A stretch of 61,346 bases of DNA from Candidatus Jorgensenbacteria bacterium (GTDB lineage: Bacteria > Patescibacteriota > Minisyncoccia > UBA6257 > GWB1-50-10), in the NCBI GenBank assembly GCA_043807585.1, contig JAZDFV010000003.1:1-61346 (forward strand), given 5' to 3'. Shown here one piece after another: positions 3,624 through 22,152 of the stretch. Below the pieces are notes generated by a model. That model was not told the origin of the DNA and did not search any database. It saw nothing but the letters and a program-made list of their open reading frames with translations. A program made the translations under genes and the position numbers. How positions within the stretch are numbered: position 1 is the first letter of the stretch; the number at the start of each line of letters is the position of its first letter.

Positions 3624-3656
3624 AAAGGGCTGATGAGTTTTTCTCATCAGCCCTTT
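3624..3656. terminator. Terminator after CTD tail 2 (aaagggctgat...atcagcccttt family)
   Basis: Stem family shared with 8946, 10984 and 15205. Confidence 0.8.
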
Positions 3657-3658
3657 GG

Positions 3659-3880
3659 TTACTTGAGCAGAATCATCTTCCTCGTTGCCACGAAGCCGTT
3701 GGCTTCGAAACGGTAGAGATAGACGCCGCTGGGATACTTCTCTGCGTTCCAGACGATCCGGTGGACACCCGCTTCCTTCTCTTCCGCCACGAGTGTTGTG
3801 AGTTCCTGTCCGAGAAGGTTCAGCACGGTGAGTTTCACCGTTGAACGCTTCGGAAGCGCGAACTCAATCGTCGTCGTGGG
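3659..3880 (-). pseudogene. Orphan, nearly complete T9SS CTD fragment (tail 2)
   Basis: Translates PTTTIEFALPKRS...SGVYLYRFEANGFVATRKMILLK*; no start or propeller domain; closest to the C-terminus of 13337-14632. Confidence 0.9.
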
Positions 3881-3959
3881 ATAAATCGCGCCGTCTCACT
3901 CCCTTATATTGGACATATCACCGAAATGGGATTATTTTCAATACAACAAGATTTTAATT

Positions 3960-4490: not shown

Positions 4491-4497
4491 TAATAGC

Positions 4498-5718: not shown

Positions 5719-5733
5719 ATCGAGACCAAACTT

Positions 5734-6675
5734 ATGCGCCAGCACAAAACAGTCGATAACTCCATTAGCTCGGACGACCTATCTGGGATCAGAAAGCGAT
5801 ACCCGTGGATAAAGATGTTCTCGGGGGACATAGAGTGTTATATACCGCCGGGATATTACGATAAGTTATTAAAAGAATACACCTTCGGTGGCAAGTCAGA
5901 TTTGGATATCTTCCGATTATATTTAAAATCTCTAACACTGAAGCCGGGTTGCCGAGTGTTAGAATTGGGTGGCGGTACGGGGAGAGCGACGAAGGTATTT
6001 CTTGACGCAATAAAGAATTTTGGAGCACTAGACGTAATCGATTTAAGCCCTGGAATGGTGTCCTATTTATCGAGGAGGTTCAGTAGGAATAGAAACGTGT
6101 TGGTTAGGACAGCCGATAATGTAGATTATTTGAACAAAACAAAAAGAAAGTATGATTTGGTGTATAGTCTTTGGAGTTTTTCCCACTCGGCACATCAACA
6201 CATGGCTGACGAGGGGTTAAGAAGGGGGTCAAAATATACTGAAAATTCTCTGGAGGGTTTCATAAAGGGAAACATTAATCCACGCGGAAATTTCTTCGTC
6301 ATGCATTTTGACAGTCTGAGTGAGGAACAGAGAATTCTGATGAAGCAGTGGGCGAAAGATTTTCACATTTTTAAGAAAAGGTCTAGACAGTCACCATCCA
6401 AGCGGTTGTTGGATAAAATCTTGAAAAATCTTAATGGCGTTTATATTCACGGACTCACCACTAAATACTATGCAGGTGACCAAATACTATATAATTCGCT
6501 GGACGAATTATTGGAAATTTTCCTTAATTTCCATATGGAAACGGAATACAACAGAAGCCGTTATCTAAAACGTGCGTTACGCGACATATCGAATGACGCG
6601 CATAAATATTGTCAACCAAACGGCACATACCTCATACGCCCGGGCTGTTTCGTTTATTCGTTCCAGAGATTGTAG
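5734..6675 (+). CDS. Class I SAM-dependent methyltransferase
   Basis: VLELGGGTG, IDLSPGM, YDLVY motifs. Confidence 0.85.
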   Translation: MRQHKTVDNSISSDDLSGIRKRYPWIKMFSGDIECYIPPGYYDKLLKEYTFGGKSDLDIFRLYLKSLTLKPGCRVLELGGGTGRATKVFLDAIKNFGALDVIDLSPGMVSYLSRRFSRNRNVLVRTADNVDYLNKTKRKYDLVYSLWSFSHSAHQHMADEGLRRGSKYTENSLEGFIKGNINPRGNFFVMHFDSLSEEQRILMKQWAKDFHIFKKRSRQSPSKRLLDKILKNLNGVYIHGLTTKYYAGDQILYNSLDELLEIFLNFHMETEYNRSRYLKRALRDISNDAHKYCQPNGTYLIRPGCFVYSFQRL

Positions 6676-6735
6676 AACCTGATGAGATTGTAAAAAGGCA
6701 ACCTTTTGTAGAACATCTTTTTGCATATCAACAAG

Positions 6736-6763
6736 AAAGCCACGGACTCATGCCCGTGGCTTT
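6736..6763. terminator. Bidirectional terminator between methyltransferase and argS
   Basis: aaagccacgg...ccgtggcttt. Confidence 0.75.
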
Positions 6764-6770
6764 TTGAGTG

Positions 6771-8621: not shown

Positions 8622-8808
8622 TTTATTTCTCCTTTCTTGTACTCTTTTCACGAAGGTTTGTTTTGTTTGTAATAAACTACGGTTAGCGTATCCGGTTTCT
8701 AAGTACTTATCAAGTTAAAGCTTTGAGTCGCCGCAATTGGTTGGTTTGCGCGTCTACGATGATATTCTAATAGAATTTACCGTAGCTGGAAAGAATAACA
8801 AAGACATC

Positions 8809-8863
8809 AAAGCCCGATACGATGATTCGTATCGGGCTTTGTTGTTACTTACTTCACGAGCAC
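8809..8863 (-). pseudogene. CTD micro-tail 3 (VLVK*, 8849-8863) plus terminator 8809-8840
   Basis: Terminator aaagcccgatac...gtatcgggcttt nearly identical to 17691-17722 behind the third full gene. Confidence 0.7.
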
Positions 8864-8877
8864 CCTTCCATCCGCAT

Positions 8878-8913
8878 TACTATCCTATCGGACGATCGTC
8901 CGATAGGATAGTA
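8878..8913. repeat. Perfect 36-bp loopless palindrome centred on CGATCG
   Basis: tactatcctatcggacga|tcgtccgataggatagta. Confidence 0.9.
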
Positions 8914-8945
8914 TGGTTGCTCGGTCACTGTTCTCACGCAACGCA

Positions 8946-8994
8946 AAAGGGCTGATACATATGTATCAGCCCTTTAATAAAGCTACTTCACGAG
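8946..8994 (-). pseudogene. CTD micro-tail 4 (LVK*, 8983-8994) plus terminator 8946-8975
   Basis: ctacttcacgag tail; acgcaaaagggctgat terminator as found after the 138-aa genes. Confidence 0.6.
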
Positions 8995-9018
8995 GGGCAT
9001 TTCCTCCACGGCCTAAAG

Positions 9019-9060
9019 TTTTATCACACTAAAACGCGATCGCGTTTTAATGTGATAAAA
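9019..9060. repeat. 42-bp loopless palindrome (1 mismatch) centred on GCGATCGC
   Basis: ttttatcacactaaaacgcga|tcgcgttttaatgtgataaaa; partial second copy at 1-27. Confidence 0.9.
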
Positions 9061-9110
9061 ATATGAAAGCCCTAAGATTCTGTAGAACCAAAGGGCTTTT
9101 TGATACATTA

Positions 9111-10406
9111 CTACTTCACCAGCACCATCCACTTTGTTTCGGTGAAAGCGCCGGCTTTCAGCTGATAGAAGTAGACGCCACTCGGGAAACTTCCTGCGTC
9201 CCAAACGATTCTGTGGGTTCCGGGCTCCATCTCTCCATCAACGAGCGTTTCAATCTTCTGACCGATTGTATTCCAGATTGTAACACTCACATCGGAACGT
9301 TTCGGCAGAGAGAACTCGATAGTCGTGCTCGGATTGAACGGGTTCGGGTAGTTTTGGGAGAGAACGAACGCGGTTGGAACTGAAGAAGGATAGTCGTCCA
9401 CGGCGGTTGGCGTATCAATCGCGCCGTCCACGCGGTAGATGGCGTTCCATGTGCCGACGAGAAGGGATTTTCCCTTCACCGCGAGCGACATCACGAGCGT
9501 GGAGTCCGCGACGATTTGCGTCCATTCCTTCCCATCGCATTTGAAGACGCCGCCTTTTCCACTGGGATCACCGCCGCCTAGCCATCCGAAACCGACGAAC
9601 ATGAGGTTGGGTTTCAGAACAAAGATCGCGGTGCCATTCCGCGCCGATGCGTCGAAACCGGGAACTTTTTCCCAAGTATCCCCGTCATCGGTTGAGCGAT
9701 AGAGGCCCTTTCTCTCGACGCCCGCATAGACAATGCCATTACTATCCGCCGCGACTGCCCACACATGAAGATCGCCAAGACCCTCATTTGACTGGTGCCA
9801 TGTCTTGCCGTCATTAGTTGAGCGGAGCACGCCGAGGCCAATAGTGTCTGCCACACCAGCGAAAATGGAACCGGTTTTCGGATTCATCGCGAGTTCTTCG
9901 ACGTTGAAGTAGTTGCGAGAATCGTAGAAGATTTCCCGCCATGTTATGCCGCCGTCGTCGGATTGTGTAATGCGCCACCCCATACCACCGAGAATCGAAC
10001 CGTCGGGTTTTGCGAGGAAGCAACCTCCCCCGCCAGCGCTCCACACAAAATCCCAATTTCCGCCTTCATCGGTTGACCGGAAGATACCGCTACCGGAACC
10101 ATAGAGGATGGCGTTCGTTTTCTTGTCTCGTATGACGTCGAAGCCGAAGTTGGAGAGGAAATCCTTCTTGAAGATTTGTTTCCACGTCTTTCCATCATCT
10201 GTTGACCGGAGCAGGGCCTTGCGGGACATTGCGGCGAGAATATCGCCGTTCGCGTCCACAAAAAGCGAGAGAACGTTTCCTTTCAAACTGTCCGGCAGAA
10301 GATTCTTGCTTACCGTAATATCCGTCGCCACCGCTTGTGTCCATACCTTTTGAGGCATGGACGCGGTGAGCACCACAAGGATACTCCACATCCATATCCG
10401 TTTCAT
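9111..10406 (-). CDS. Secreted BNR/Asp-box beta-propeller protein with T9SS type A CTD (B1)
   Basis: Signal peptide, repeated RSTDDGKTW Asp-boxes, LSQNYPNPFNPSTTIEF...MVLVK. Confidence 0.9.
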   Translation of the reverse strand: MKRIWMWSILVVLTASMPQKVWTQAVATDITVSKNLLPDSLKGNVLSLFVDANGDILAAMSRKALLRSTDDGKTWKQIFKKDFLSNFGFDVIRDKKTNAILYGSGSGIFRSTDEGGNWDFVWSAGGGGCFLAKPDGSILGGMGWRITQSDDGGITWREIFYDSRNYFNVEELAMNPKTGSIFAGVADTIGLGVLRSTNDGKTWHQSNEGLGDLHVWAVAADSNGIVYAGVERKGLYRSTDDGDTWEKVPGFDASARNGTAIFVLKPNLMFVGFGWLGGGDPSGKGGVFKCDGKEWTQIVADSTLVMSLAVKGKSLLVGTWNAIYRVDGAIDTPTAVDDYPSSVPTAFVLSQNYPNPFNPSTTIEFSLPKRSDVSVTIWNTIGQKIETLVDGEMEPGTHRIVWDAGSFPSGVYFYQLKAGAFTETKWMVLVK

Positions 10407-10454
10407 GGCAAACCTCCATAACTGATTATTGATGATTTGGTAATTATTTCTATG

Positions 10455-10560
10455 TACATTATACCATAGAACATATCAAAAAGTCAATATTACGACAGTA
10501 GACAACTTTAGCGTCAAGCTGAACCGAGAAAAACCCCATCTGATGTGATATAATTTCGAT
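10455..10560. promoter_or_regulatory. Divergent promoter region, duplicated at 14676-14782
   Basis: TTGACT-18-TATAAT with extended TG on minus strand; extended -10 TGATATAAT on plus strand; 86 bp identical between copies. Confidence 0.75.
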
Positions 10561-10561
10561 A

Positions 10562-10978
10562 ATGAAGAAAGTAAGGGCTTTATTCGTCTCTCTTGCGATT
10601 TTTTCGCTTATTCTCCCTGTGGGCGGTTTCGCGGCGTTTCAAGGCCCAGCAAACTTTCAGGGGAAATATGAGGCAAGCCAGGACGCCATTCAGTTGCGGT
10701 GGCAAAATGTTGAGAACTACAGTCAACAGACGTTGACAAAGACCGTCAGTCCTTCAGGTAAACCCGGTGTTTTAGTTCCAAGATTCGATACTGCTCCCGG
10801 CAACAAATCTTTCTCCGATACAAACCAGGGGCAGGAGTTCACCCGCGGCGCGTATCAGTACCAACTTTCCACAACTAAGGGTGGCGAGATACAAACGTCC
10901 GATCTCTCCGTTCCCATCACCCCGGAGGACTCGAACATCGTGATCGTGAAGACGACGAGCGGGGGCTTGATGGCATAA
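10562..10978 (+). CDS. 138-aa secreted single-domain protein (A1), equal to the N-terminus of 19174-22152
   Basis: Signal peptide then AAFQGPANFQGKYEASQDAIQL...; ends GGLMA*. Confidence 0.8.
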   Translation: MKKVRALFVSLAIFSLILPVGGFAAFQGPANFQGKYEASQDAIQLRWQNVENYSQQTLTKTVSPSGKPGVLVPRFDTAPGNKSFSDTNQGQEFTRGAYQYQLSTTKGGEIQTSDLSVPITPEDSNIVIVKTTSGGLMA

Positions 10979-10983
10979 AACGC

Positions 10984-11089
10984 AAAAGAGCTGATACATT
11001 CTTGTTGTATCAGCTCTTTTGATAAATTTTCACTCCGGCTGAAGTGCCGGAATCTACTTCACCAGAAGCATTTTCACCGACGAAATGAA
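10984..11089. pseudogene. Terminator 10984-11020 plus orphan CTD tail 6 (FISSVKMLLVK*, 11054-11089, minus strand)
   Basis: Translation of reverse complement; same layout at 15205-15300. Confidence 0.75.
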
Positions 11090-11096
11090 TTCGCAA

Positions 11097-11294
11097 TCAA
11101 GACGGTGCCGATTCAGAAATTGCGCCCGTCGCCTCGTTCTTAAAGAGATCGCGGACGGGATCGGGCATTCTGCCAACACCATCACATCCACCACATCGGC
11201 CCCCTTTTTCTCTCTCTTCTCCTGTTCCGTTACAGGCCGGGCAGACAATCCATCCTTCCGGCATAAATGTGCAACATCCAAATTCTCCTAGCAT
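11097..11294 (-). CDS. 65-aa Cys-rich peptide with DnaJ-type CxxCxGxG motifs (Z2)
   Basis: CPACNGTG...CGGCDGVG; AGGAGG RBS. Confidence 0.75.
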   Translation of the reverse strand: MLGEFGCCTFMPEGWIVCPACNGTGEEREKGGRCGGCDGVGRMPDPVRDLFKNEATGAISESAPS

Positions 11295-11537
11295 GGGAAC
11301 CTCCTCGTGAAATTGGAAAGGTTGTTTCTATTTACTCTGCTTACATTACACCACACTAGACATAAGAAAATCAAATTTTTATAAGATGGGGTTTTGTGGC
11401 CCGGCAAACCCAACTATTGGTTTGCAATTCCTGACAAGATCAAGCGTGTCCGCAATATCACTAACCGTGGCCGCATCAACGGCGTCACCAGCGCCAGTCG
11501 CTGGAGAAGGAGCAAATCCAAAGCTCCAGCTAACTAC

Positions 11538-11565
11538 TTGACGAGTTGTTACTATTATGTATAAT
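11538..11565 (+). promoter_or_regulatory. Sigma70 promoter TTGACG-16-TATAAT for the peptide/M16 operon
   Basis: Near-consensus boxes read directly. Confidence 0.75.
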
Positions 11566-11611
11566 GCGAGTAGTATATTTCATAAAACTTTTTGAACGAA
11601 AGGAGGAATGT

Positions 11612-11752
11612 GTGCTGAAAGCAAAACCCGATCAAGAACAAATGCCCGAAACGCCGAATAGGGACCCATCAACGGATGCGATTGATTACCCGCAATCACC
11701 GGAAGGTGGAAGGGAAGAGGAATCTTCCGCGATGGAGAGTGAGTTGTTCTAA
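11612..11752 (+). CDS. 46-aa acidic peptide (IDY peptide 2) MLKAKPDQEQMPETPNRDPSTDAIDYPQSPEGGREEESSAMESELF
   Basis: AAGGAGG RBS with GTG start at 5-nt spacing; shares PE..D.IDY...E(N/L)F with 561-686. Confidence 0.7.
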   Translation: MLKAKPDQEQMPETPNRDPSTDAIDYPQSPEGGREEESSAMESELF

Positions 11753-11830
11753 CCATTCTCAGCGCAATTAAAAGTGTTTTCCGTTCTTGGAGTAACCAAC
11801 TAAATTTCAAAAGGAAAGGAGGTGAAAGCT

Positions 11831-11914
11831 ATGTATCCGAACCAACGTTATAGATCGGACGATCCGCCCGAAGGAACCGTGATGGATGACGACGGCGAAC
11901 CTATCCATGGTTAA
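11831..11914 (+). CDS. 27-aa peptide MYPNQRYRSDDPPEGTVMDDDGEPIHG
   Basis: Ideal AAGGAGGTG RBS; followed by hairpin ~11932-11968. Confidence 0.75.
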   Translation: MYPNQRYRSDDPPEGTVMDDDGEPIHG

Positions 11915-12007
11915 CACTCCCCTCATCATTCCGAACACGATTTATTGTTATTACAGTAAGTCGTGTTTTATTTTGTTATTTCTTAAAATAAGCTATTATT
12001 TTGATTG

Positions 12008-13282
12008 ATGAAGCATTATTCCGGGTCAAAACTTGAGAACGGTCTCACCGTCATTACAAGCGAGGATAAAAACTCTGAAGTCGTTCTTCTCATGGCTGGG
12101 TTTAAGGCTGGGTCACGTTATGAGAAAAAAAATGAGCGCGGCTATGCACATCTTTTAGAACACGTACTCCTCAAGGGTACCAAAAAACGTCCGTCCATTA
12201 CTAAAGTTGGCGAGATAACGGATCAAGCCGGAGCTGATCTGGGAGCCTATACCGACATGGAAAGTGTAGTGGTGCGTCTCCATGCCGCAAAGGAATGGCG
12301 GGAGGGCATGTTTGAACTATTGCTAGATGTTATTGGAAATCCTCTTTTCTCAACGGAAACGCTCAAAAACGAAAAGAATATTGTTATCCAAGAATTACAC
12401 AAATTCCGTGACAATCGAGGACCGCGCCTGTGGTCAGAATCACTAAAACGTCTGTTTGGATCTCACCCGCTCGCACAAAATCCCATCGGGGAAGAGGAGG
12501 TGATTTGTCATGTAACAAGCGCGAAACTCAAAAGCTACTATGAACGATTCTTAACTCCCGATAGGGGCGTAATAATAGCTACCGGGAACGTGAGTCACGC
12601 GGAGATTGTAAAATGGGTATCACAATACGGAAAACCAAAATGGATGCAATCTCGGGGAGCATCCACTCCACTCATATCAGTACACCCGAAATCTGGCACA
12701 GAGTTTATCAAAGAGCCCGGGAACCAAACACAGTTGTTCTTCAATTTTGTTTGTCCCGCGCTTACGCTCAATAAATTGCTGACGTTAGAACTAATTGCAA
12801 ACGCATTTGGATATGGGAATGTCCCAATACTAAAACAGGATTTACGCCACAAAAGAGGGTTGGTGTATGCAATCAGCTCTTACGTGCAAAGATTTCAGGA
12901 TGTAGTTCTATTCTATGTTTCCACCGCGAGTACTGAACCGAAGGAGGTCGTTGAAGCGGTAGTAAAAATATTTGAAAACTTTTTGGACACGTTTCCAGAA
13001 AGCCGATTTGAAGAATTCAAGAAAAAATACAAGAGCGTTTTTCTTCGCAAGCTGAGTGATCCTTTTTACGAAGCCAATCTATTGAAAGATTCTTGGATGT
13101 TTTACGGAAGGTTAGTAACGCCAGAAGAAATTTCCCAAAACATCGAATCGCTGACGTACCATGATGTGGTTAATATGAGAAATCGATATCTTATTAATGA
13201 GAAGCTTTTTATTACGATGTTCGGAGAACGGAATCCTGAAATTAAATTATCGGGACAAAGACAATTTACTTCTCATTCCTAA
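12008..13282 (+). CDS. M16 family zinc peptidase
   Basis: HLLEH inverted zincin motif; R..RGLVY C-domain motif. Confidence 0.9.
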   Translation: MKHYSGSKLENGLTVITSEDKNSEVVLLMAGFKAGSRYEKKNERGYAHLLEHVLLKGTKKRPSITKVGEITDQAGADLGAYTDMESVVVRLHAAKEWREGMFELLLDVIGNPLFSTETLKNEKNIVIQELHKFRDNRGPRLWSESLKRLFGSHPLAQNPIGEEEVICHVTSAKLKSYYERFLTPDRGVIIATGNVSHAEIVKWVSQYGKPKWMQSRGASTPLISVHPKSGTEFIKEPGNQTQLFFNFVCPALTLNKLLTLELIANAFGYGNVPILKQDLRHKRGLVYAISSYVQRFQDVVLFYVSTASTEPKEVVEAVVKIFENFLDTFPESRFEEFKKKYKSVFLRKLSDPFYEANLLKDSWMFYGRLVTPEEISQNIESLTYHDVVNMRNRYLINEKLFITMFGERNPEIKLSGQRQFTSHS

Positions 13283-13289
13283 AAAAATA

Positions 13290-13321
13290 AAAGCCCGAGG
13301 GATTGCTCCGCTCGGGCCTTT
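13290..13321. terminator. Bidirectional terminator between M16 and B2
   Basis: aaagcccgag...ctcgggcctt. Confidence 0.75.
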
Positions 13322-13336
13322 TGATACAAAGTACTA

Positions 13337-14632
13337 CTACTTCAGCAACAGCATCTTTCTCGTTGCCACGAAGCCGTTCGCTTCGAGGCGATGGAAATAG
13401 ACACCGCTGGGTAAATCTCGAGCGTTCCAGACGATTCTGTGAATTCCGGGCTCCATCTCTCCATCAACGAGCGTTTCAACATTCTGTCCGAGGGCGTTGT
13501 AAATCGCGAGATTCACATTCGCCCGCTTCGGAATAGAGAACTCTATCGTCGTACTCGGATTGAAGGGGTTCGGGTAGTTCTGGAGCAGACGGTAATCAGT
13601 AATTAGTAACTGGTAATTGTTGTCCACGGCGGTTGGCGTATTCATCGCGCCGTCCACGCGGTAGATGGCATTCCATGTGCCGACGAGAAGGGATTTTCCC
13701 TTCACCGCGAGCGCACCTACCCAACTCACCGAATCGGCGACGATCTGTGTCCATGCTTTCCCATCATACTTGAGGACACCGCTCTTCGCGCCGCCAACAC
13801 CTCCCGCATCGTCGAATCCCACGAACACAAAGTCGGGTTTCACTGCGAGAATCTTCCGCGCCCACCTGTGGGACGCGCCGATTTCCACAATTCTTGTCCA
13901 CGACACACCGTCGTCCACGGAACGATAGAGGCCGTTCTCAGTGCCGGCGTAAAGGGTGCCGTTTGAATCCGCCGCCACAGACCACACATGGAGATCTCCG
14001 AGACCCCCATTTGATTGGTGCCACGTTTTCCCGTCATCGGCGGACCGGAGCACGCCAAGCCCGATGGTGTCGGCGGTACCCGCGAAGAGAGAGCCAGTTT
14101 TTGGGTTCACCGCGAGCTCCTCGACGTTGAAGTAGTGGTCGCTACGATAGAATACCGGTTTCCAAGACACACCACCATCTTCGGAATGGCCGATATATTT
14201 ACCTGTGCCGGCGAGAATGGAACCATCCTCCTTTACCAGAAAACATCCTGCTCCTTTTTCCCACACAAAAGTCCAACTCACGCCGTTATCACCTGACCGG
14301 TAAAGCCCTCCGCCGTTTCCAAAAAGAAGCGCGTTAGTTTTCTGGTCGCGCATGACCGCAAAACCGAAGTTAGAGAGAAAATCTTTTTTGAAGATTCGCT
14401 CCCATGTCTTCCCGTCGTCCGTAGAGCGGAGCAACGCCTTGAAGGACATTGCGGCAAAAATATCGCCATTTGTGTCTATCCAGATTGAAAGAACATTGTC
14501 TTTCAAACTGTCCGGCAGAAGATTCTTGCTTACAGTGATATCCGTCGCCACCGATTGCGCCCATACCTTTTGAGGCATGGACAGCACACTCAACATCAGG
14601 GCGAGCGTGAAAGCCCATGCTCTCGTTTTCAT
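13337..14632 (-). CDS. Secreted BNR beta-propeller with T9SS type A CTD (B2)
   Basis: Paralog of B1; QNYPNPFNP; heptamer-repeat-derived linker NYQLLITDY. Confidence 0.9.
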   Translation of the reverse strand: MKTRAWAFTLALMLSVLSMPQKVWAQSVATDITVSKNLLPDSLKDNVLSIWIDTNGDIFAAMSFKALLRSTDDGKTWERIFKKDFLSNFGFAVMRDQKTNALLFGNGGGLYRSGDNGVSWTFVWEKGAGCFLVKEDGSILAGTGKYIGHSEDGGVSWKPVFYRSDHYFNVEELAVNPKTGSLFAGTADTIGLGVLRSADDGKTWHQSNGGLGDLHVWSVAADSNGTLYAGTENGLYRSVDDGVSWTRIVEIGASHRWARKILAVKPDFVFVGFDDAGGVGGAKSGVLKYDGKAWTQIVADSVSWVGALAVKGKSLLVGTWNAIYRVDGAMNTPTAVDNNYQLLITDYRLLQNYPNPFNPSTTIEFSIPKRANVNLAIYNALGQNVETLVDGEMEPGIHRIVWNARDLPSGVYFHRLEANGFVATRKMLLLK

Positions 14633-14782
14633 TGCTGTTACTCCTTATATAGGTTTGTGAATGACTTTAACTGCTTACATTATACCATAGAACATATCAA
14701 AAAGTCAATATTACGACAGTAGACAACTTTAGCGTCAAGCTGAACCGAGAAAAACCCCATCCGATGTGATATAATTTCAATA

Positions 14783-15199
14783 ATGAAAAGAGCAAGAGCT
14801 TTATTCGTTTCGCTTGCGATTCTCTCGCTTATTCTCCCCGCGGGCGGTTCCGCGGCGTTCCAGGGACCGGCAAACTTTCAGGGGAAATACGAGGCAAGCC
14901 AGGACGCCATTCAATTGAATTGGCAGAATGTTGAGAACTACAGTCAACAGACGTTGACAAAGACCGTCAGTCCTTCAGGTAAACCTGGTGTTTTGGAGCC
15001 AGGACTTGATACCACTCCCGGCAACAAATCCTTCTCCGACACAAACCAAGGGCAGGAGTTCACCCGCGGCTCGTATCAGTACCAACTTTCCACGATCAAG
15101 AGCGGCGAGACACAGACATCCGATCTTTCTGTCCCCATCATGCCGGAGGACTCGAACATCGTGATTGTGAAGACGACGACCGGGGGTTTGATGGCATAA
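14783..15199 (+). CDS. 138-aa secreted single-domain protein (A2)
   Basis: Close paralog of A1 with the same GGLMA* end. Confidence 0.8.
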   Translation: MKRARALFVSLAILSLILPAGGSAAFQGPANFQGKYEASQDAIQLNWQNVENYSQQTLTKTVSPSGKPGVLEPGLDTTPGNKSFSDTNQGQEFTRGSYQYQLSTIKSGETQTSDLSVPIMPEDSNIVIVKTTTGGLMA

Positions 15200-15204
15200 A
15201 ACGC

Positions 15205-15300
15205 AAAAGGGCTGATGCATATCGCATCAGCCCTTTTGATAAATCTTCACTCCGACTAAAGTGCCGGAGGCTACTTCACAAGCGTCATTTTCTTGCGAAT
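15205..15300. pseudogene. Terminator 15205-15237 plus orphan CTD tail 8 (IRKKMTLVK*, 15271-15300, minus strand)
   Basis: Translation of reverse complement; parallels 10984-11089. Confidence 0.75.
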
Positions 15301-15332
15301 ATTTCTATCGAGGTTCAACCTTGATAGGAACT

Positions 15333-16331
15333 TTACTGCACAGAACTGCCTTTGAATTTTATAAGAGATCTTTGGGTGTTAATTTCACATCTGCCGCCAA
15401 TAGGAAAAGTTATCATTGGGCTGGTATGACCGAAATCAAGATTAGAAACGACGGGTATGTCAAAATTTGATACTAGAATCTTCAATAATTCCCCCTCTTC
15501 TTTAGAGGCAAGACCGCTTCTAGAGCCGAATCTGCCAATGACTAATCCACGTAGTTTCCGGAAATCGGAAAGTTGAACCAGCTGGGTTAACATTCTTTCA
15601 ATCATTCCCTTATTCATACAGGGATCTTCTTCAATAAAAAGGATTTTATTTTTAAAACTGGGGCAATACGGCGTTTTTAATAGAAGCAGAAATGTTGATA
15701 AATTTCCTCCGATAATTTCTCCTTCTGCGCTACCAGCTTTGATAAACCGCCAGCCACCATTTTTCATCAGTTGTCTATGCTTGCGGGGCGTTTGCCACCA
15801 TTCGTCTTCCGCCCATGTTTTCGACGGTTCGACTATAATATCTGATTCGCCATCCATCAGTACTTTTTTGAAATATTTAAGCTCGAAGTTGAACGGAGGC
15901 TCAGTTTGTGCCATGGTAGCAAAACATGGCCCCGAAAATGTTATTAAACCGGTTTTTGTAAAAATTGCGTTTTGTAAAGCCGTAACATCACTGAAACCAA
16001 TAAATATTTTGGGGTTATTTTTTATGAGTTTGAAATCAATAAAAGGCAAAAGTTGGTTCGAGGTGTACCCCCCTATAACAGCCATTACCGCCTTAATACT
16101 CTTAGACTTAAACATGTGATGAAAATCTGTAAGGCGCGGTTTTATGCTATCTGTGGAAAGTTCGCTGAATCTGAATATATTCTTTCCGTATTGAACTTTA
16201 AAACCAAGAGATTCCAAATTCTTTTTAGCTAATTTGAGATTTCCCTTTTTAATCAGTGAAGCTGAAGATGCCGGGGCTACCACGCCAATTAAATCTCCAC
16301 ATTTTAATCTTGGCGGTTTAATAATTTCCAT
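15333..16331 (-). CDS. S66 family peptidase (LD-carboxypeptidase / MccF-like)
   Basis: IGVVAPAS, IGGY, FIGFSDVT, GGNL, LFIEE, DFGHT motifs. Confidence 0.9.
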   Translation of the reverse strand: MEIIKPPRLKCGDLIGVVAPASSASLIKKGNLKLAKKNLESLGFKVQYGKNIFRFSELSTDSIKPRLTDFHHMFKSKSIKAVMAVIGGYTSNQLLPFIDFKLIKNNPKIFIGFSDVTALQNAIFTKTGLITFSGPCFATMAQTEPPFNFELKYFKKVLMDGESDIIVEPSKTWAEDEWWQTPRKHRQLMKNGGWRFIKAGSAEGEIIGGNLSTFLLLLKTPYCPSFKNKILFIEEDPCMNKGMIERMLTQLVQLSDFRKLRGLVIGRFGSRSGLASKEEGELLKILVSNFDIPVVSNLDFGHTSPMITFPIGGRCEINTQRSLIKFKGSSVQ

Positions 16332-16397
16332 AACTTATATTATAAATAAAAAAAGAGTGCGAGAGAAGTCTTAAAATCCCGCACTCTCTATTAAGCC

Positions 16398-16427
16398 TTA
16401 CGGCTCACAAAGATGCCCCTTCAACAT
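16398..16427 (-). CDS. 9-aa micro-ORF MLKGHLCEP, candidate RiPP precursor
   Basis: AAGGAGGTG RBS 7 nt upstream; ATG overlaps the stop of the frame-corrected rSAM (ATGTTGA); hairpin plus U-tract follows (~16353-16388). Confidence 0.65.
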   Translation of the reverse strand: MLKGHLCEP

Positions 16428-17591
16428 AATTCATCACCTCCTTCCGGTAGTAGTTCGGAGAGTGTTCTGTACTTTGGCGATTCCCCATCATTTCTTATCA
16501 ACCCTCTGTAGATTTCCTTCAGATTGCTGGAAAGAATGGGTAGAATCGTTTCTTCCACAACTGGCATTATGAAACATGAGATTGGATCGGCATTGTTTAC
16601 CCCCCCCTGTCCATCTTAAGGCATCCGCTCGGCAACCTCCCCCACACAACATGAGATATTTGCAATTCCTACATCCTTCAAGGTCACTAACCTTTAGAGT
16701 GAAGAAGTTATTCTTCATGGCCGACCCCAAGACGTCGCTAAGGCTGGTACCTTCCGTAATTCTTCCCAGAACAAGTTGTATGGGAGAGCAGAGGGTTATC
16801 GTTCCATCGGGCTTAACGGTAATACTGCCCAAGAAATAGTCGCAGGGGTGAAGAGAAGTATCGCTTTGGGCCGCCGCATCACCGAGCTGGATGTTCTCAA
16901 GCTGACTCTTGTATATTCTAAACAATGCCAGTTCTGTCTTTTGCAATTCCGCATGAGCATACCTATTAATTATCAAACGGGAAGCTATCTCAACGGCGGT
17001 TTTGAAATCGAGCAAAATGTCGATCTTGTGAGGTCTAATTGGTAAATCGACTCTCCAAGCATCGACACCCAACTCAACAACCTTTCGCTGGAGATCAACA
17101 ACCTCTCCCATATTGTGTCTGTGAAGCACGGTATTCACGCTGATCCGACAATCCTTTCTTTTTTCCCTTATCCAGCGAATAACGTTGATAATGTTGTGCC
17201 AATCACTGGGTGGCCTTGCTATGTTATGACCATCAAAGCCGTCTAACGAGGTTATTATTTCTTTGACTGCTGGCGATTCGATTACGCTTTCCATCACCTT
17301 CCCGTCTGTCTTCCATAGGTTAGTCATGAGGGATGCTTTTGCATGATGCGAGCCAAGTCTCTCCATGATTTCCAAAATCCCCGGGAAAGAAAGAGGTTCT
17401 CCTCCAGAAACAACAAAACTCCCTATGCCCATCTCTACTGCCTGATCAATTATTCCCAACCACTCTTTGCTGGTCATCTCAGCTTTCTCATGACACATAC
17501 TGCTCTTCTCGCGAACGACGTAACAGTAAGAGCAATTAAGATTGCACCTATTTGTCAAATCAAGGTGTATCCTTTTTATACGATGTTCCAT
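16421..17591 (-). CDS. Radical SAM/SPASM enzyme (PqqE/NirJ-like), frameshifted at a G8 tract (16600-16607)
   Basis: CNLNCSYC, SGGEP, SPASM cysteines; removing one G restores ...NNADPISC...EGGDELC*. Confidence 0.85.
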
Positions 17592-17654
17592 TTTTATCCT
17601 CCATTCTCATCCGCTTATTTGGTTTTTATTCGAAGGTAATTCGATACTAAATAT

Positions 17655-17682
17655 ATTATACTCAATAATAGAAAGGTGTCAA
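17655..17682 (-). promoter_or_regulatory. Consensus promoter TTGACA-16-TATAAT for the rSAM cassette
   Basis: Read from reverse complement, immediately beyond the B3 terminator at 17691-17722. Confidence 0.85.
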
Positions 17683-17733
17683 CAAATAAAAAAGCCCGAT
17701 ACAATCAATCGTATCGGGCTTTCTTGTTACCAC

Positions 17734-19029
17734 TTATTTCACCAGCACCATCCGTTTCGTTTCAGTAAAAGCACCGGCCTTCAGCTGATAGAAGTATATG
17801 CCGCTGGGCAGATTAGAACCGTCAAACGTGGCGGTGTATACTCCCGCTCTTTCTGTCTTGTCCACCAGCACCGACACCTCCACACCAAGTATGTTGTACA
17901 CCGCGAGTTTCACATACGTCATACGTGACACTTGATACTCAATACTGGTAGAGGGATTGAACGGGTTCGGGAAATTCTGGGACAGCATGAAAGCGGTTGG
18001 AACGGAAGGATAGTCGTCCACGGCGGTTGGCGTATCAATCGCGCCGTCCACGCGGTAAATCGTGTTCCAAGTTCCGACAAGGAGCGATTTACCCTTGACC
18101 GCAAGCGACTTCACTATGTAAACGGTATCGGCGACGATCTGTGTCCACACCTTCCCGTCATACTTGAGGACCCCGCTCTTTGCTGCGCCCGCTTTCCAGT
18201 CGAATCCCACGAATACAAGATTCGGCTTTACCGCGAGAATCTTCCGCGCCCACCTGTGGGACGTGCCGATTTCCGTAATTCTTGTCCACGACACGCCGTC
18301 ATTCACCGAACGATAGAGGCCGTTCTCGGTGCCAGCGTAGATGGTGCCGTTCGAGTCAGACGCTACAGACCACACATGAAGATCTCCGAGACCCCCATTC
18401 GACTGTTGCCACGTCTTCCCGTCATCGGTTGAACGGAGTATGCCGAGGCCAATGGTGTCCGCAGTGCCTGCGAAGATAGAGCCGGTCCTAGGATTCATCG
18501 CGAGTTCCTCAACGTTGAAGTAGGGGCGGGGGTCGTAGAAGATTTCCCTCCACGTAGCACCGCCGTCGTCCGATTGTGTAATACGGTAACTCATGCCGCC
18601 GAGGATCGAGCCGTCCGGTTTTGCGAGGAAGCAACCCCCCCCGCCAGCGCTCCACACAAAAGTCCAGCTTTTACCCTCATCAGTTGATCGGAAAATACCG
18701 CTACCGGAACCATAGAGAATGGCGTTCGTTTTCTTGTCCCGTATAGCACCGAAGCCAAAGTTTGAGAGAAAGTCCTTTTTGAAGATTCGCTCCCATGTTT
18801 TCCCGTCGTCGGTCGAGCGGAGCAGGCCTCTGTAAGACATTGCCGCGAGGATGTCGCCGTTCTTATCAATCCAGATGGAGTACACGTTCTCGCTCACGCT
18901 GTCGGGCAGAATTTTGTTTACCGTAATATCTGTCGCCACCGATTGTGTCCATACCTTTTGCGGCATGGACAGCACACTCAACGTCAGGGCGAGTGTGAGA
19001 GCCCATGCTTTCGTTTTCATTTCTGTCAC
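17734..19029 (-). CDS. Secreted BNR beta-propeller with T9SS type A CTD (B3)
   Basis: Paralog of B1/B2; QNFPNPFNP; start may be MKTK at 19020. Confidence 0.9.
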   Translation of the reverse strand: MTEMKTKAWALTLALTLSVLSMPQKVWTQSVATDITVNKILPDSVSENVYSIWIDKNGDILAAMSYRGLLRSTDDGKTWERIFKKDFLSNFGFGAIRDKKTNAILYGSGSGIFRSTDEGKSWTFVWSAGGGGCFLAKPDGSILGGMSYRITQSDDGGATWREIFYDPRPYFNVEELAMNPRTGSIFAGTADTIGLGILRSTDDGKTWQQSNGGLGDLHVWSVASDSNGTIYAGTENGLYRSVNDGVSWTRITEIGTSHRWARKILAVKPNLVFVGFDWKAGAAKSGVLKYDGKVWTQIVADTVYIVKSLAVKGKSLLVGTWNTIYRVDGAIDTPTAVDDYPSVPTAFMLSQNFPNPFNPSTSIEYQVSRMTYVKLAVYNILGVEVSVLVDKTERAGVYTATFDGSNLPSGIYFYQLKAGAFTETKRMVLVK

Positions 19030-19173
19030 TCCTTATATTTTGTTGGTAAACCACTGTTATTCTGTTCCCATTATACCACGACTGGTGCCTAAAAGTCAAT
19101 ATTACGAGGAAAGCATGGGGCTTTGTCGAATCGGAGCGCAGAAAAGGGCTTGGGATATGGTATAATAGAAACC

Positions 19174-22152
19174 ATGAGAAAAGCTGTCGGTTTTCTTGCG
19201 CTTTCATTTCTCCTTTCGTTCACTTCCGCGTTCGCGGCTTTCCAAGGACCCGCTAATTTTCAGGGGAAATACGAGGCAAGCCAGGATGCTATTCAATTGA
19301 ACTGGCAGAACGTTGAGAACTATAGCCAGCAGACACTAACGAAGGTCAGTAGTCCTTCTGGTGGGTCACGTGTTTTAAAAGATCAACCCAACCCAGCTAC
19401 CGGTCAGCAAACTTTCTCCGACACAAACCAGGGGCAGGAGTTTGCCCGCGGCGCGTATCAGTACCAACTTTCCACAACCAAGGGCGGCGAGATACAAACG
19501 TCCGATCTCTCCGTTCCCATCATGCCGGAGGACTCGAACATCGTGATCGTGAAGACGACTACCGGGGGCCCGCCAGCCGTCGAGGGTTACATCTTAACCT
19601 GCCTCGGGAGTACCACCTCCACCATCAGCCTCGCGTGGAGCGGGAATGTCTCGGGCACCCACACCCTAAACCTCTACCGGAGTACCAGTGCCTCGGGGGT
19701 GCTTGGCGGGAGCCGTACGCTCGTGGCACCCCCGCCTACACTTACTACCGGGAGCGGTTCCTACACCGACGCAACCGGTCTCGCAGAAAATACCAACTAC
19801 TGGTACCGCCTGGAGTGGGGGGGCAGCGGCACCACCCAACAGTGCCGCACCGCCGCCGAAAGCCCTCCTCCCACTCCGGCCGGCGCCGATGTGCCGTCGT
19901 TCCTGAACGTTTGGGCGCTATCGCCCTCATCGCTCTACGTGAACTGGAAGGACAATTCGGTGGTTGCGCACACCTTCGACCTCCAGCGGGTGAAGCTCAC
20001 ACCCGCGCCGCCCGTATTCCCCTACACGGATGCCACCGGGAAGAAAGGCGTGGAGACCGTGAGCGATACCGCAATCAAACTCTATTGGAAGAATCTTACC
20101 AATACCCAGACGCTGAAGGGCCCCTACTACCACCTCGTGGAACGGAGCACGTCGAGCACCCCATTTGCGGATCCTGACAATGACGGGGACCTCGACGAGC
20201 ACGACCCGTCGTTCACAAAAATCCCGTGGGCGTTCACGGATGACGTGGATGTGGCGAGCACGCGCACGATCTACGAGCAGACGAGCACCGGCCTCACCGA
20301 GGGCACCAACTACTACTACCGTATGAAGGGGTGCTCATTCGTGCGGGCCGATGTCACCCGCGAGCAACCGCCGCCGGGACCCCAGAACGACGTACCCGAG
20401 GATATCTGCGGTGCGTACCAGAGCGGTGGTGTGGTGTACCTCGCGACGACGACGCTCCCGGCCTCGCCGCAGGGGGTTGAGTTCACAAATGTAACCACGA
20501 GTAGTCTCGCCCTCCGGTGGAAGGACTACTCCCAAAGAGAGAGCGGGTTTGCGCTTGCGGTGTTCCCTGCGCCGGGGGCGGGGAACTGCACCACCGGACA
20601 ATGCACCGCACCGGTGAACGCGGCGATGCCACCCGCAGGCCAGACGTACTCGTTCACTGCGCCATTCACCGTCACGGGGCTTCAGCCCGGAACGTCTTAC
20701 GCCGTCGCTATCCGCGCGTTCCGTGACGGCACGTGGGGGCGTGCGTTCTCTCCGGGGGTGTCGCCATCAAACTCTACCACGACCGACTCCTACGTCATGG
20801 TTGCCTCGCCGGACGGTGGCACTATCGGGGGCGACTGCACGAGCGGTCAGACCTGCTATTTCAGCTATGGCCATTCGGTAACCCTCACCGCGTCCGCGTC
20901 CGGCGAGTACGAATTTACACAGTGGACCGGTGGACCCTGCACTAACTCCACGAACGCGACATGCACTTTCCCAATTACCGGGAACGTGAGCGTGAACGCG
21001 CTCTTCACGGAAAACCCCAAGGTTGTAGTTGCCTCGCCGAGCGGCGGCACGATCGGGGGCGACTGCGAGAGTGGCAAGACCTGCTACTTTGTTCCCAATA
21101 CCTCGGTAACCCTTACCGCGACAGCGGACGGCGGGTACGAATTCACGAAGTGGAACGACGGGCCTTGCAATAACTCCACGAACGCGACGTGCACTTTCCC
21201 AATTACCGGGAACGTGACCGTGAACGCGCTTTTCACAAGGGTGGTGCTCCAGGAAACCGTATCTGTAAACGCATTTGTGGGGGCGACTGCGACCTCGACC
21301 GCTTTTAACTTCTCCCTCGTTGATCCGAATGGCAAGACCGTGGCCTCGGGGGTGAACAATGTTCCCACCTCGACGACCGCGAACTATCCCACCGGTTCGG
21401 ATAAGAAGTTTACCTTCACCTACGTGAGTGGGGGACCTCCCGGTATGGTCTTTGAGAAGATCGTCCATTTGAACTCAACCGGCAGTGGCGCGCCGACATT
21501 TAACACGTTCACCGGTCAAGGATTCATTGGTGAAGACGGCGGTTGGCTCAAGTACGACGTGTACTTCACGACGGCGAGCGGCATGCTCCCCACACGGAAT
21601 CTCTATGCAAATGTCACGGAGTCCCTCCGGACCGTCATAGAGTGGTTCTCGGCCGTCGGCACGCGCGTGAGAGTAGGAGCGACAGCGCTCGCGGGGGACT
21701 TTGCGGCGGCGGTGAGAGGATTATTTGCGACCGCGGCCGCATCGGTGGAGCTCCGGACCGTGGGCGGAGTGACCCTCACCCGGGACCAGTTGGATGCCTA
21801 CTTTGACCGATTCACGCCGTCGGGGTGGCAGGGATCCCACGCCGAGCGGAACCTCTCGGTCTTCACCGATACCGGGCTTGCGGCGGATACCGCCTATCTC
21901 TACCGAGTGCGCGCATGTAGCGGCGGCACCTGCACGGTGTATTCCGATGCAGCGGCGGGCAAAACGCTCTCGGGGAGTGCGGTAGAGAGCGGTGTGGTCA
22001 AGGTGTGCGTGCGGAATAACTTCTGCGGTACAAAGACGCGCTACATCGTGCCGGGATCGTCGCCACTGATCGCATCTGATGACCAGTGCGCGCTGAATAT
22101 CCACTGCCGCGACGTGGGCACCTCCCGCCAGTTCTTCGAGGAGACCCGGTAA
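19174..22152 (+). CDS. ~992-aa secreted surface protein with FN3-like domains and two ~76-aa InlB-B-repeat-like units (A3)
   Basis: Signal peptide; W...Y.YRV FN3 patterns; 228-nt internal repeat at ~20800 and ~21028. Confidence 0.8.
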   Translation: MRKAVGFLALSFLLSFTSAFAAFQGPANFQGKYEASQDAIQLNWQNVENYSQQTLTKVSSPSGGSRVLKDQPNPATGQQTFSDTNQGQEFARGAYQYQLSTTKGGEIQTSDLSVPIMPEDSNIVIVKTTTGGPPAVEGYILTCLGSTTSTISLAWSGNVSGTHTLNLYRSTSASGVLGGSRTLVAPPPTLTTGSGSYTDATGLAENTNYWYRLEWGGSGTTQQCRTAAESPPPTPAGADVPSFLNVWALSPSSLYVNWKDNSVVAHTFDLQRVKLTPAPPVFPYTDATGKKGVETVSDTAIKLYWKNLTNTQTLKGPYYHLVERSTSSTPFADPDNDGDLDEHDPSFTKIPWAFTDDVDVASTRTIYEQTSTGLTEGTNYYYRMKGCSFVRADVTREQPPPGPQNDVPEDICGAYQSGGVVYLATTTLPASPQGVEFTNVTTSSLALRWKDYSQRESGFALAVFPAPGAGNCTTGQCTAPVNAAMPPAGQTYSFTAPFTVTGLQPGTSYAVAIRAFRDGTWGRAFSPGVSPSNSTTTDSYVMVASPDGGTIGGDCTSGQTCYFSYGHSVTLTASASGEYEFTQWTGGPCTNSTNATCTFPITGNVSVNALFTENPKVVVASPSGGTIGGDCESGKTCYFVPNTSVTLTATADGGYEFTKWNDGPCNNSTNATCTFPITGNVTVNALFTRVVLQETVSVNAFVGATATSTAFNFSLVDPNGKTVASGVNNVPTSTTANYPTGSDKKFTFTYVSGGPPGMVFEKIVHLNSTGSGAPTFNTFTGQGFIGEDGGWLKYDVYFTTASGMLPTRNLYANVTESLRTVIEWFSAVGTRVRVGATALAGDFAAAVRGLFATAAASVELRTVGGVTLTRDQLDAYFDRFTPSGWQGSHAERNLSVFTDTGLAADTAYLYRVRACSGGTCTVYSDAAAGKTLSGSAVESGVVKVCVRNNFCGTKTRYIVPGSSPLIASDDQCALNIHCRDVGTSRQFFEETR

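Follow-up and report, generated by a model that had tools for sequence, protein, structure and literature searches.

The 61,346-nucleotide stretch analysed here in its entirety, henceforth the window (positions 1 to 61,346 of the forward strand of contig JAZDFV010000003.1, assembly GCA_043807585.1, Candidatus Jorgensenbacteria bacterium), carries a compact cassette composed of a gene for a radical S-adenosylmethionine (rSAM) enzyme with a SPASM domain, a nine-codon open reading frame (micro-ORF) and a gene for an S66-family serine peptidase, all on the minus strand and alone between two flanking terminators. A terminator-like hairpin with a T-run (17688..17725, 17-bp stem) closes the upstream gene of 431 amino acids (aa) and delimits the cassette as its own transcription unit, while a strong palindromic terminator (15204..15238, 16-bp stem, assigned to neither strand) marks its end, between the peptidase gene and a convergent 138-aa gene. 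An earlier note on this DNA had described a consensus promoter ahead of the rSAM gene, a ribosome-binding site (RBS) within the frame-corrected C-terminus of the enzyme, a nine-codon ORF overlapping the rSAM stop, a hairpin with a U-tract and a downstream S66 peptidase, and every one of these elements was recovered. The promoter is of the sigma-70 type (TTGACA-16 nt-TATAAT, 17655..17682), agrees with the consensus at 12/12 positions, lies ~60 nt 5' of the rSAM start codon and is the single perfect instance in the window, with none appearing in 100 shuffles. The rSAM gene (16421..17591) is preceded by a GGAGGA RBS, and its last codons (...EGGDEL, within the repaired C-terminus EGGDELC) hold the Shine-Dalgarno sequence AAGGAGGTGAT (16433..16443), which occurs once in the window and whose AGGAGG ends 9 nt 5' of the micro-ORF ATG. 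The micro-ORF, ATGTTGAAGGGGCATCTTTGTGAGCCGTAA (16398..16427; codons ATG TTG AAG GGG CAT CTT TGT GAG CCG TAA), encodes MLKGHLCEP, a putative precursor or core peptide, and its start (ATG, 16427-16425) overlaps the end of the rSAM gene (TGA, 16423-16421).

Between the micro-ORF and the peptidase gene lies an intrinsic-terminator-like hairpin (16345..16389) with a 13-bp stem and a 12-nt loop (stem 16389-16352) followed by U7. The predicted folding energy is -18.2 kcal/mol (z = -3.8), a value equalled by 0/200 shuffles, and the GC-rich hairpin and U-run of rho-independent terminators are both present, although a simple terminator scan had overlooked the structure because of its 12-nt loop; a comparable hairpin and T-run lies 3' of the micro-ORF in most homologous loci. 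The S66 gene (15333..16331) encodes a 332-aa protein of the MccF-like clade with no evident signal peptide. It lacks a Shine-Dalgarno sequence, and a TATAAT box stands 7 nt 5' of its ATG (16332-16345), so that it might be expressed from a leaderless transcript and not by terminator read-through. A scan against Rfam returned no structured RNA within the cassette, and the seven tRNA genes of the window all lie elsewhere, dispersed over its second half (42024-54825).

As sequenced, the rSAM gene is split into two ORFs (17591..16488 and 16567..16421) by a +1 frameshift in a G8 homopolymer (16600..16607). The first ORF (367 aa) matches the Pfam families Radical_SAM (4.7e-17) and SPASM (7.5e-5), plus Fer4_12, and deletion of one G yields a 389-aa protein ending ...LPEGGDELC. 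This repair is not arbitrary, because homologues of ~380 aa and 49-56% identity span 86-97% of the repaired protein, the repaired tail regains the invariant residues D335, C339 (the seventh SPASM Cys) and E346, and the family spacing WTG-4 aa-ADP is restored at a site where the homologues carry no poly-G. The CxxxCxxC cluster motif corresponds to C16/C20/C23 (CNLNCSYC), and all 14 sequences compared retain the seven SPASM cysteines (C250, C268, C307, C310, C316, C320 and C339), C339 of the window being encoded only once the frameshift is repaired. Past the last SPASM Cys follow ~50 conserved, family-specific residues (MPLVE..ILP.LS..L...Y..LI). The protein starts at the rSAM core and thus has no N-terminal RiPP recognition element (RRE) domain, RiPP denoting a peptide made on the ribosome and modified after translation; this absence fits a leaderless substrate. 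Scanned against NCBIfam and Pfam, enzymes from five clades of the family reached no curated cut-off (the best was ScmE, at 84 bits vs 400), and the nearest solved sequences are anSME, SkfB, SuiB, PqqE and CteB (E 1e-17 to 1e-25, 17-20% identity). An AlphaFold model of the homologue P0002 (mean confidence, pLDDT, 89.5; predicted TM-score, pTM, 0.88) gave its best E-values with SuiB, SkfB, PqqE and BlsE and its best TM-score with anSME (0.68/0.71). Identity as an anSME was considered and rejected, given that the substrate motif C/S-x-P/A-x-R is absent from the peptide and the TIGR03942 score falls far under its cut-off, as was a phage origin, the IMG/VR matches to the enzyme being only 21-26% identical with no close relative among them.

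The peptidase matches both S66 domain families (PF02016, Peptidase_S66, 1.7e-35; PF17676, S66C, 5e-29), and its earlier designation as MccF-like is borne out by its best solved relatives, namely the MccF-like proteins BA_5613 and Lmo1638 and MccF itself. Against the PDB, BA_5613 scored 1.7e-75, Bacillus anthracis MccF 1e-49 and Escherichia coli MccF 3e-43, vs 1e-26 to 1e-15 for the murein LD-carboxypeptidases of the LdcA type. Eight cassette S66 proteins all keep the motifs G[FY]SD (Ser114), F[IL]EE (Glu234/235) and DFGHT (His302) unchanged, and these residues we take, by what is known of the S66 family, to be the candidate catalytic triad; a Trp-containing loop of the cassette S66 aligns with BaMccF.

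The micro-ORF is retained wherever close homologues of the enzyme were found. The contigs of seven close rSAM homologues all carry a nine-codon ORF with an AGGAGG-type site at or just past the rSAM stop, and among distinct close homologues, for which the earlier note had proposed exactly this comparison, 10/10 have the AGGAGG site and the same ORF (that of L002 enters masked sequence, a run of N, after codon six). L003, L004 and L007 derive from groundwater of the Hainich sites. Ten distinct DNA versions encode MLKGHLCEP in nine cases and MLKGDLCEP (H5D) in one, next to enzymes only 49-56% identical. Variable sites at codon positions 1/2/3 number 3/0/8, all eight third positions varying and synonymous Leu changes explaining two of the three variable first positions, so that pairwise codon differences among the ten versions amount to 232 synonymous vs 9 non-synonymous. 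TAA, TAG and TGA are all used as stop codons, an in-frame stop two codons 5' of the micro-ORF in L008 fixes the length of the ORF, and none of 20,000 simulations with random placement of the substitutions retained the peptide at every one of the nine other loci. When JGI metagenomes were scanned with the back-translated peptide alone (ATGYTNAARGGNSAYYTNTGYGARCC), four matches came up, all of them (4/4) cassette loci. The peptide having stayed constant while the rSAM enzyme diverged to ~50% identity, strong purifying selection acts on MLKGHLCEP as a translated peptide. The prediction that annotation pipelines would miss it proved correct, as it is not among the gene calls of any public contig examined.

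MLKGHLCEP is always accompanied by this rSAM subfamily and, in the clade of the window (clade 1), by S66 as well. The peptidase gene is adjacent in the window and in 9/10 other distinct clade-1 loci, the sequence of the remaining one (L001) ending before the S66 position, and clustering of the genes neighbouring clade-1 cassettes left S66 as the sole conserved gene besides the rSAM gene. The order rSAM-ORF-terminator-S66 is found in the window, L003, L004, L005, L007, L008 and L074, and the order rSAM-ORF-S66 recurs in L002, where the intergenic region is masked. Elsewhere the genes are reshuffled: L075 reads S66, rSAM, ORF; L072 reads S66, a separate promoter-like site, ORF, terminator; and in L006 the S66 gene is convergent. 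A larger conserved cluster was also considered and rejected, since the bigger rSAM/SPASM genes that lie near the cassettes at three loci (the window, L003 and L075) share only 23-28% identity among themselves and are not orthologues.

Beyond the close homologues, the enzyme belongs to a widespread family. A search of one genome per GTDB species with an alignment of the enzymes returned no close homologue, and it gave ~30 loci whose enzymes match along their full length at 27-34% identity, most of them in metagenome-assembled genomes (MAGs) labelled Patescibacteria, Woesearchaeota and other archaea, Clostridia or 'Gammaproteobacteria', with single loci labelled Bacteroidales, Bdellovibrionota, Victivallales and Anaerolineaceae. 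Patescibacteria and DPANN archaea provide most MAGs of the wider family. When 1.84 billion representative proteins were searched with a profile, 1,904 matched at E <=1e-30, including at least 150 representatives below 1e-52. Among 47 loci with an rSAM enzyme of >=26% identity over most of its length, a set that includes six lower-identity loci retrieved from public contigs, 43 have a short ORF with an L/I-K core beside the rSAM gene; of the other four, two are truncated (L013, L043), and in L014 and L027 none was found.

The peptides so recovered fall into types that follow the enzyme clades. MxLKNKQPS is encoded in all 11 loci linked to a prolyl-tRNA synthetase gene (11/11), with 203 synonymous vs 58 non-synonymous pairwise differences, its Ser being encoded by AGC, AGT or TCA and its RBS lying inside the last rSAM codons; L029 (3997-4026) has the variant MTLKNKQFF in its place, which may be a degenerate copy. 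Another clade, linked to cysteinyl-tRNA synthetase genes, follows the pattern ..LKGHC[STMG]D.., and the short KGH peptides comprise MAIKGHCTDD, MTLKGHCTDD, MVLKGHCGDD, MKAPIVLKGHCSD and MSAPVVLKGHCSD as well as MIALKGHCSDC, MISLKGHCMDC, MQSLKGHCMDC and MVALKGHCTDR. MVLKCRDGS occurs at one locus. Besides these short forms of 9-13 aa there are long forms of 27-57 aa, which matched no precursor family and end in ...LKGHLVDSAPD, ...LKGHLADCGPAP, ...LKGHLADTQ, ...LKGHWCDI or ...IKGHLGDCQ, or else in ...FKGHMADCGYS, ...FKGHMMDCSYE, ...NKGHMADCGYA or ...LKGHLANSNSSSD. All share a Lys with five to ten residues behind it and, usually, Leu or Ile ahead of it, and the KGH branch adheres to K-G-H-x-x-[D/E]. 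At most two residues stand ahead of this Lys in the peptide of the window, and MLKGHLCEP looks like the bare core of what some relatives appear to carry as an ordinary leader-plus-core precursor. A sactipeptide- or ranthipeptide-type reaction common to the whole family was rejected, as Cys is absent from MxLKNKQPS, ..LKGHLVDSAPD and ..LKGHLADTQ; a thioether is possible for the clade of the window alone.

The sole cultured carrier found is Paenibacillus haidiansis M1 (L055 2825-5214, NZ_JAZHPZ010000008.1), in which a 57-aa precursor ending ...NKGHMADCGYA is followed by two tandem rSAM/SPASM genes, the family enzyme being 27% identical. A second, smaller rSAM/SPASM gene (329-381 aa) lies beside the first in many cassettes outside the S66 clade (L015-L018, L021, L023, L026, L028, L036 and L080, besides L055), that of L015 being PapB-like at 162 bits, under the cut-off; peptides from such loci may undergo two rSAM steps.

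Outside the S66 clade, the slot of the peptidase is taken by another kind of gene. Neighbouring genes were clustered across loci and then scanned against families, aminoacyl-tRNA synthetases (aaRSs) being called by the NCBIfam equivalog cut-offs, and in these clades the cassette adjoins a complete aaRS gene of at least seven kinds, an association that is absent from the earlier note and surfaced in this follow-up. ProRS genes accompany all 11 MxLKNKQPS loci and CysRS genes seven distinct KGHC loci, and the remainder are MetRS (L036, L014), LeuRS (L040, L042), AspRS (L030, L031), AsnRS-like (L039) and SerRS (L041); two of them, the AsnRS-like gene of L039 and the LeuRS gene of L042, which is truncated, miss the cut-offs, and all others score above. 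With nine aaRS queries, such genes were present in 28/39 family loci vs 0/29 of the remaining rSAM loci that these scans returned (p = 2e-10 by Fisher's test; 1e-10 with duplicates removed). Within the ProRS clade, ProRS and rSAM identities (both 56-87%) rise and fall together (r = 0.93) across loci that have different flanking genes and MAG labels from several phyla, which indicates that aaRS, enzyme and micro-ORF behave as one mobile unit. The ProRS proteins of L022-L044 are 74-87% identical across MAGs labelled Saccharibacteria, Magasanikbacteria, Paceibacterota, Falkowbacteria and 'Gammaproteobacteria'; this points to joint horizontal movement of cassette and aaRS or else to unreliable labels or binning of these MAGs.

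In clade 1, a ValRS gene starts 0.8 kb from the S66 gene of L075, and the window has a low-GC ArgRS gene (6771-8651) 6.7 kb from the cassette. A Gcn5-related N-acetyltransferase (GNAT) is encoded in three loci (L012, L023, L028). Apart from S66, aaRS and further rSAM genes, clustering of neighbours across the loci identified no conserved partner. Hydrolases directed at nucleotides recur beside some cassettes, namely a protein with an Apyc1-like metallo-beta-lactamase fold (L079 1759-2649) and NUDIX proteins (L007 3334-3837, L019 4264-4707), and these may be present by chance or may hint at a nucleotide-containing product. An ABC-F ATPase (ribosomal-protection-like/EttA-like) encoded 2.7 kb from the clade-1 cassette of L075 (3746-5416) is probably a housekeeping protein.

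Taken together, the comparative data make it probable that the window harbours a minimal RiPP-type cassette of one promoter, one rSAM/SPASM enzyme, one translationally coupled nine-codon gene and one MccF-like S66 peptidase. The proposal of a nearly leaderless pathway made in the earlier note gains strength from the finding that the putative precursor gene lies beside, and is co-inherited with, the rSAM gene in all 10 distinct close loci; a leader and an RRE-type domain, which are usual though not universal among RiPP systems, are absent from the cassette of the window. An RRE-less enzyme of this kind, like anSME, would bind the essentially leaderless peptide directly and modify it around the common Lys, that is, within [L/I]-K-G-H-x-x-[D/E] in the branch of the window and within L-K-N-K-Q-P-S in another. 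As candidate reactions, the enzyme could form a Lys crosslink or, in the clade of the window only, a Cys thioether; it could also epimerise a residue, oxidise Cys or Ser, or add a 5'-deoxyadenosyl group. The hairpin past the micro-ORF would let the transcript for enzyme and peptide end ahead of S66, and the peptidase would act on the product in the cytoplasm, through MccF-like detoxification or C-terminal trimming.

As for function, the accessory genes offer the best indication. Producers of Trojan-horse aaRS inhibitors protect themselves with the S66 peptidase MccF, with the GNAT enzyme MccE2, which transfers an acetyl group to microcin C after its processing and to other aminoacyl-nucleosides, or with extra aaRS copies such as AgnB2 (LeuRS), AbmK (SerRS) and the asnS of some mcc-like clusters (PMC8323819). 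Since S66, GNAT and aaRS genes are also the accessory genes of this family, its product, by analogy, most likely targets tRNA aminoacylation or is coupled to it in function. The more specific proposal, in which aminoacylation is what the products act on and S66 serves to protect the producer, is one we would advance only tentatively and at somewhat less than even confidence, a biosynthetic trimming role for S66 being the main alternative to producer protection. Rather doubtful is the broadest form of the idea, in which widespread rSAM-made micro-peptides, each with a core of six to seven residues after the invariant Lys, would act on aaRSs and would spread horizontally with a per-cassette antidote in the form of a matching aaRS, a GNAT or S66. 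Under such an aaRS-inhibitor reading, the product would be a Trojan-horse compound or antimetabolite for which the rSAM enzyme replaces the chemistry of MccB, either by 5'-deoxyadenosyl addition or by turning one residue into a toxic analogue; the antidote would be an aaRS for Pro, Cys, Met, Leu, Asp, Ser or Val, or the MccF-like S66 in the clade of the window, and the spread would have taken place among Patescibacteria, DPANN archaea, Clostridia and others.

Several observations weigh against this interpretation or parts of it. The cassette has no conserved exporter, leader protease or MccB-type nucleotidyltransferase, which weakens the antibiotic reading, and none of the Cys, aromatic or acidic residues of the peptides recurs in every clade. 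In the window, the rSAM gene is frameshifted as sequenced, and because a terminator separates the micro-ORF from an S66 gene devoid of a Shine-Dalgarno sequence, their co-expression is not assured. The aaRS linkage was read from 3-kb flanks, such that the linked genes could be either second or sole copies, and the taxonomic labels of the MAGs may be unreliable. The peptides, moreover, do not consistently name the linked aaRS. The third residue after the conserved Lys (K+3) equals the amino acid of the linked aaRS for Cys, Met, Leu and Asp (4/9 independent cases, p ~0.002 in a test devised post hoc), but the correspondence fails for the ProRS clade, L031, L039, L041 and L075, the last of these in a prospective check (Leu at K+3, ValRS nearby); we thus rejected it as a rule and retain it as a weak lead only.

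The alternative that survives best, and that we regard as a real if lesser possibility, pertains to the copy in the window and not to the family, and holds that this cassette is the decaying remnant of a horizontally acquired one, with a real frameshift, an rSAM enzyme bereft of its last SPASM Cys and C-terminal helices, and no product. The +1 shift in the G8 run is indeed absent from all homologues, and the window's copy may be inactive as sequenced. The cassette also looks horizontally acquired: its GC content is 41% vs 53% for the window, strong Shine-Dalgarno sequences precede its rSAM gene and micro-ORF where such a sequence is recognizable at only 5/42 large ORFs of the window, and it sits between diverged tandem copies of another, 1.9-kb module. 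Nevertheless, the single-base shift in an 8-nt homopolymer is the only coding disruption noticed, and the sequence downstream of it still aligns with the homologues. Homopolymers are common sites of sequencing and assembly errors, and the G8 run may be of this kind, may have truly inactivated the gene or may serve as a slippage site. All other signals are intact, from the promoter and both RBSs through the micro-ORF and its terminator to the candidate triad motifs of S66, which counts against decay.

It is also conceivable, although unlikely, that the peptide is functional without being the substrate of the rSAM enzyme, acting for example as a regulator or ligand of an aaRS or of translation while the enzyme modifies a small molecule, a tRNA or an aaRS. 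The strength of the aaRS linkage would suit this scenario, as would the lack of a leader and of an RRE, and the restriction of the residues shared by all recovered peptides to a single Lys would be unusual if one crosslink chemistry served the whole family. The enzyme, for its part, has a full SPASM domain, and its closest folds include the peptide maturases SuiB, SkfB and PqqE, and anSME; each peptide type is paired strictly one-to-one with an rSAM clade; translational coupling, with a Shine-Dalgarno sequence within the last rSAM codons and overlapping stop and start codons, is found in several clades; and the 27-57-aa forms of the relatives resemble ordinary RiPP precursors. These features are more readily accommodated by the assignment of the peptide as the enzyme's substrate.

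A further proposal, which we judge improbable, views the micro-ORF as a cis-regulatory leader or arrest peptide whose ribosome occupancy would control the hairpin and thereby read-through into S66. The ORF does lie immediately 5' of the hairpin and S66 in the window, L003-L005, L007, L008 and L074, and arrest peptides, too, can be conserved in amino acid sequence. Yet the reshuffling of gene order with retention of the trio argues against control of S66 by a leader peptide: L075, L072 and L006 do not have the ORF 5' of S66, the S66-less clades place it 5' of the rSAM gene (L015, L016, L018, L019, L021) or on the opposite strand (L017), and in L023, L026 and L028 it lies 1 kb off, beyond the second rSAM gene, so that the rSAM gene is its only constant partner. 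Finally, a chance origin of the nine-codon ORF, with conservation imposed by constraints on the rSAM C-terminus, the RBS or the terminator RNA, has a negligible probability, for although the ORF is very short and overlaps the rSAM end in the window and L008, its variation is concentrated at wobble positions, its three stop codons are interchanged, it lies wholly outside the rSAM gene and at varying distance in most loci, the pattern-only scan finds it solely in cassettes, and the upstream in-frame stop of L008 fixes its length.

Interpreted as a RiPP-type system, the cassette shares features with several known pathways without coinciding with any of them. Like the SPASM peptide maturases and anSME (SuiB/StrB, which forms the Lys-Trp crosslink of streptide, PqqE, SkfB and CteB), its enzyme combines CxxxCxxC with a seven-Cys SPASM domain beside a short peptide gene, the Lys central to its motif recalls streptide, and the lack of an RRE together with a length of ~380 aa recalls anSME; unlike the substrates of these maturases, the peptide has 9-13 aa and no leader, and the Trp and Tyr partners used by StrB and PqqE are absent. 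In mycofactocin and pyrroloquinoline quinone (PQQ) biosynthesis, the core set likewise joins a short peptide to an rSAM/SPASM enzyme and a peptidase of its own, and the C-terminal region of the peptide is important, as it appears to be here. Their precursors, however, are 20-30 aa long and are bound via PqqD- or RRE-type chaperones, their peptidases are creatininase-like (MftE) or of family M16 (PqqF/G) and not of family S66, and the cassette described here has no redox partner genes. The biarylitides, whose 5-aa precursor is still called the smallest reported RiPP precursor in a 2026 paper (PMC12951456), offer the precedent of a near-leaderless micro-precursor missed by gene callers and served by one tailoring enzyme, but their crosslink is installed by a cytochrome P450 and not by an rSAM enzyme, and they have no peptidase or aaRS partner.

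The resemblance to microcin C resides in a tiny precursor (7 aa in mcc, 9 aa here), a hairpin beside the tiny gene and an S66 peptidase of the MccF-like clade, and it extends, in sister clades, to a GNAT (compare MccE2) or aaRS gene, as known from microcin C and mcc-like clusters (PMC8323819). In contrast, the cassette lacks MccB (the ThiF-like nucleotidyltransferase) and the exporter MccC, its sole enzyme is an rSAM/SPASM protein, its precursor ends in Glu-Pro and not in Asn or Asp, its micro-ORF lies 3' and not 5' of the enzyme gene, and a nucleotide moiety is in this case purely hypothetical. With agrocin 84 (AgnB2, LeuRS), albomycin (AbmK, SerRS) and the asnS-bearing mcc-like clusters, the family shares a complete, co-evolving aaRS gene in or beside a small cassette (PMC8323819), whereas its own cassettes are far smaller, many occur in the reduced genomes of Patescibacteria and DPANN archaea, and the role of the aaRS is read by analogy.

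Full-text literature searches for the peptides, for rSAM enzymes combined with S66/MccF or aaRS self-resistance and for RiPPs of Patescibacteria did not find this system. As judged from sequence, it would constitute a new rSAM/SPASM RiPP-type family with leaderless 9-13-aa precursors in a cassette coupled to an aaRS or to an MccF-like S66 peptidase. At nine residues and with essentially no leader, the peptides would, if modified, be the shortest rSAM RiPP precursors known to us, and they would demonstrate recognition of a substrate by a SPASM enzyme without a leader or an RRE domain. The family also exposes an annotation blind spot, in that an uncalled micro-ORF and the lack of a curated family have left all of it unseen despite at least 150 enzyme representatives below 1e-52. 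The coupling of an rSAM enzyme and peptide to at least seven aaRS specificities, and to an MccF-like hydrolase in one clade, points to a new means of targeting or tuning aminoacylation. Patescibacteria and DPANN archaea account for many of the carriers, and very little is known of their secondary metabolism or host interactions; were the aaRS-inhibitor reading true, these organisms of reduced genome would possess a previously unrecognised chemical weapon or growth-control system. A system of only two to three genes, together with the cultured carrier P. haidiansis M1, provides an experimentally tractable entry point.

The surroundings of the cassette in the window merit a brief description. 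The module that flanks it is present in three diverged tandem copies (9109-10978, 13335-15199 and 17735-19570; 65-92% nucleotide identity over the repeat segments, period ~4.2-4.4 kb), each consisting of a 431-aa BNR/Sortilin-like protein with a type IX secretion system (T9SS) C-terminal sorting domain, on the minus strand, and a divergent 138-aa secreted protein, which is extended to 1009 aa in the third copy. The T9SS sorting domains accord with the rarity of Shine-Dalgarno sequences in the window, a trait typical of hosts of the Bacteroidota/FCB type. The two spacers between the modules are similar in size and low in GC, one holding an M16 peptidase gene (12005-13282) and the other the rSAM cassette. 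Positions 1-17700 form a low-GC mosaic (genes of 38-46% GC) comprising the ArgRS gene, an aldehyde-dehydrogenase-like gene, the M16 peptidase gene and the cassette, while the core genes LigA, PheT and PilB have 58-63% GC; this region is possibly a genomic island, one that includes a tRNA synthetase gene as well. Within it lies a second, unrelated rSAM/SPASM gene (792-2222, minus strand), whose 476-aa product has a ~118-aa N-terminal extension and is matched best by the anaerobic sulfatase maturase family (301 bits, cut-off 349) and then by DynA. Beside this gene, a 344-aa protein with no family match is encoded (2227-3261, minus strand), and the two together (792-3261) may represent another peptide-maturation locus.

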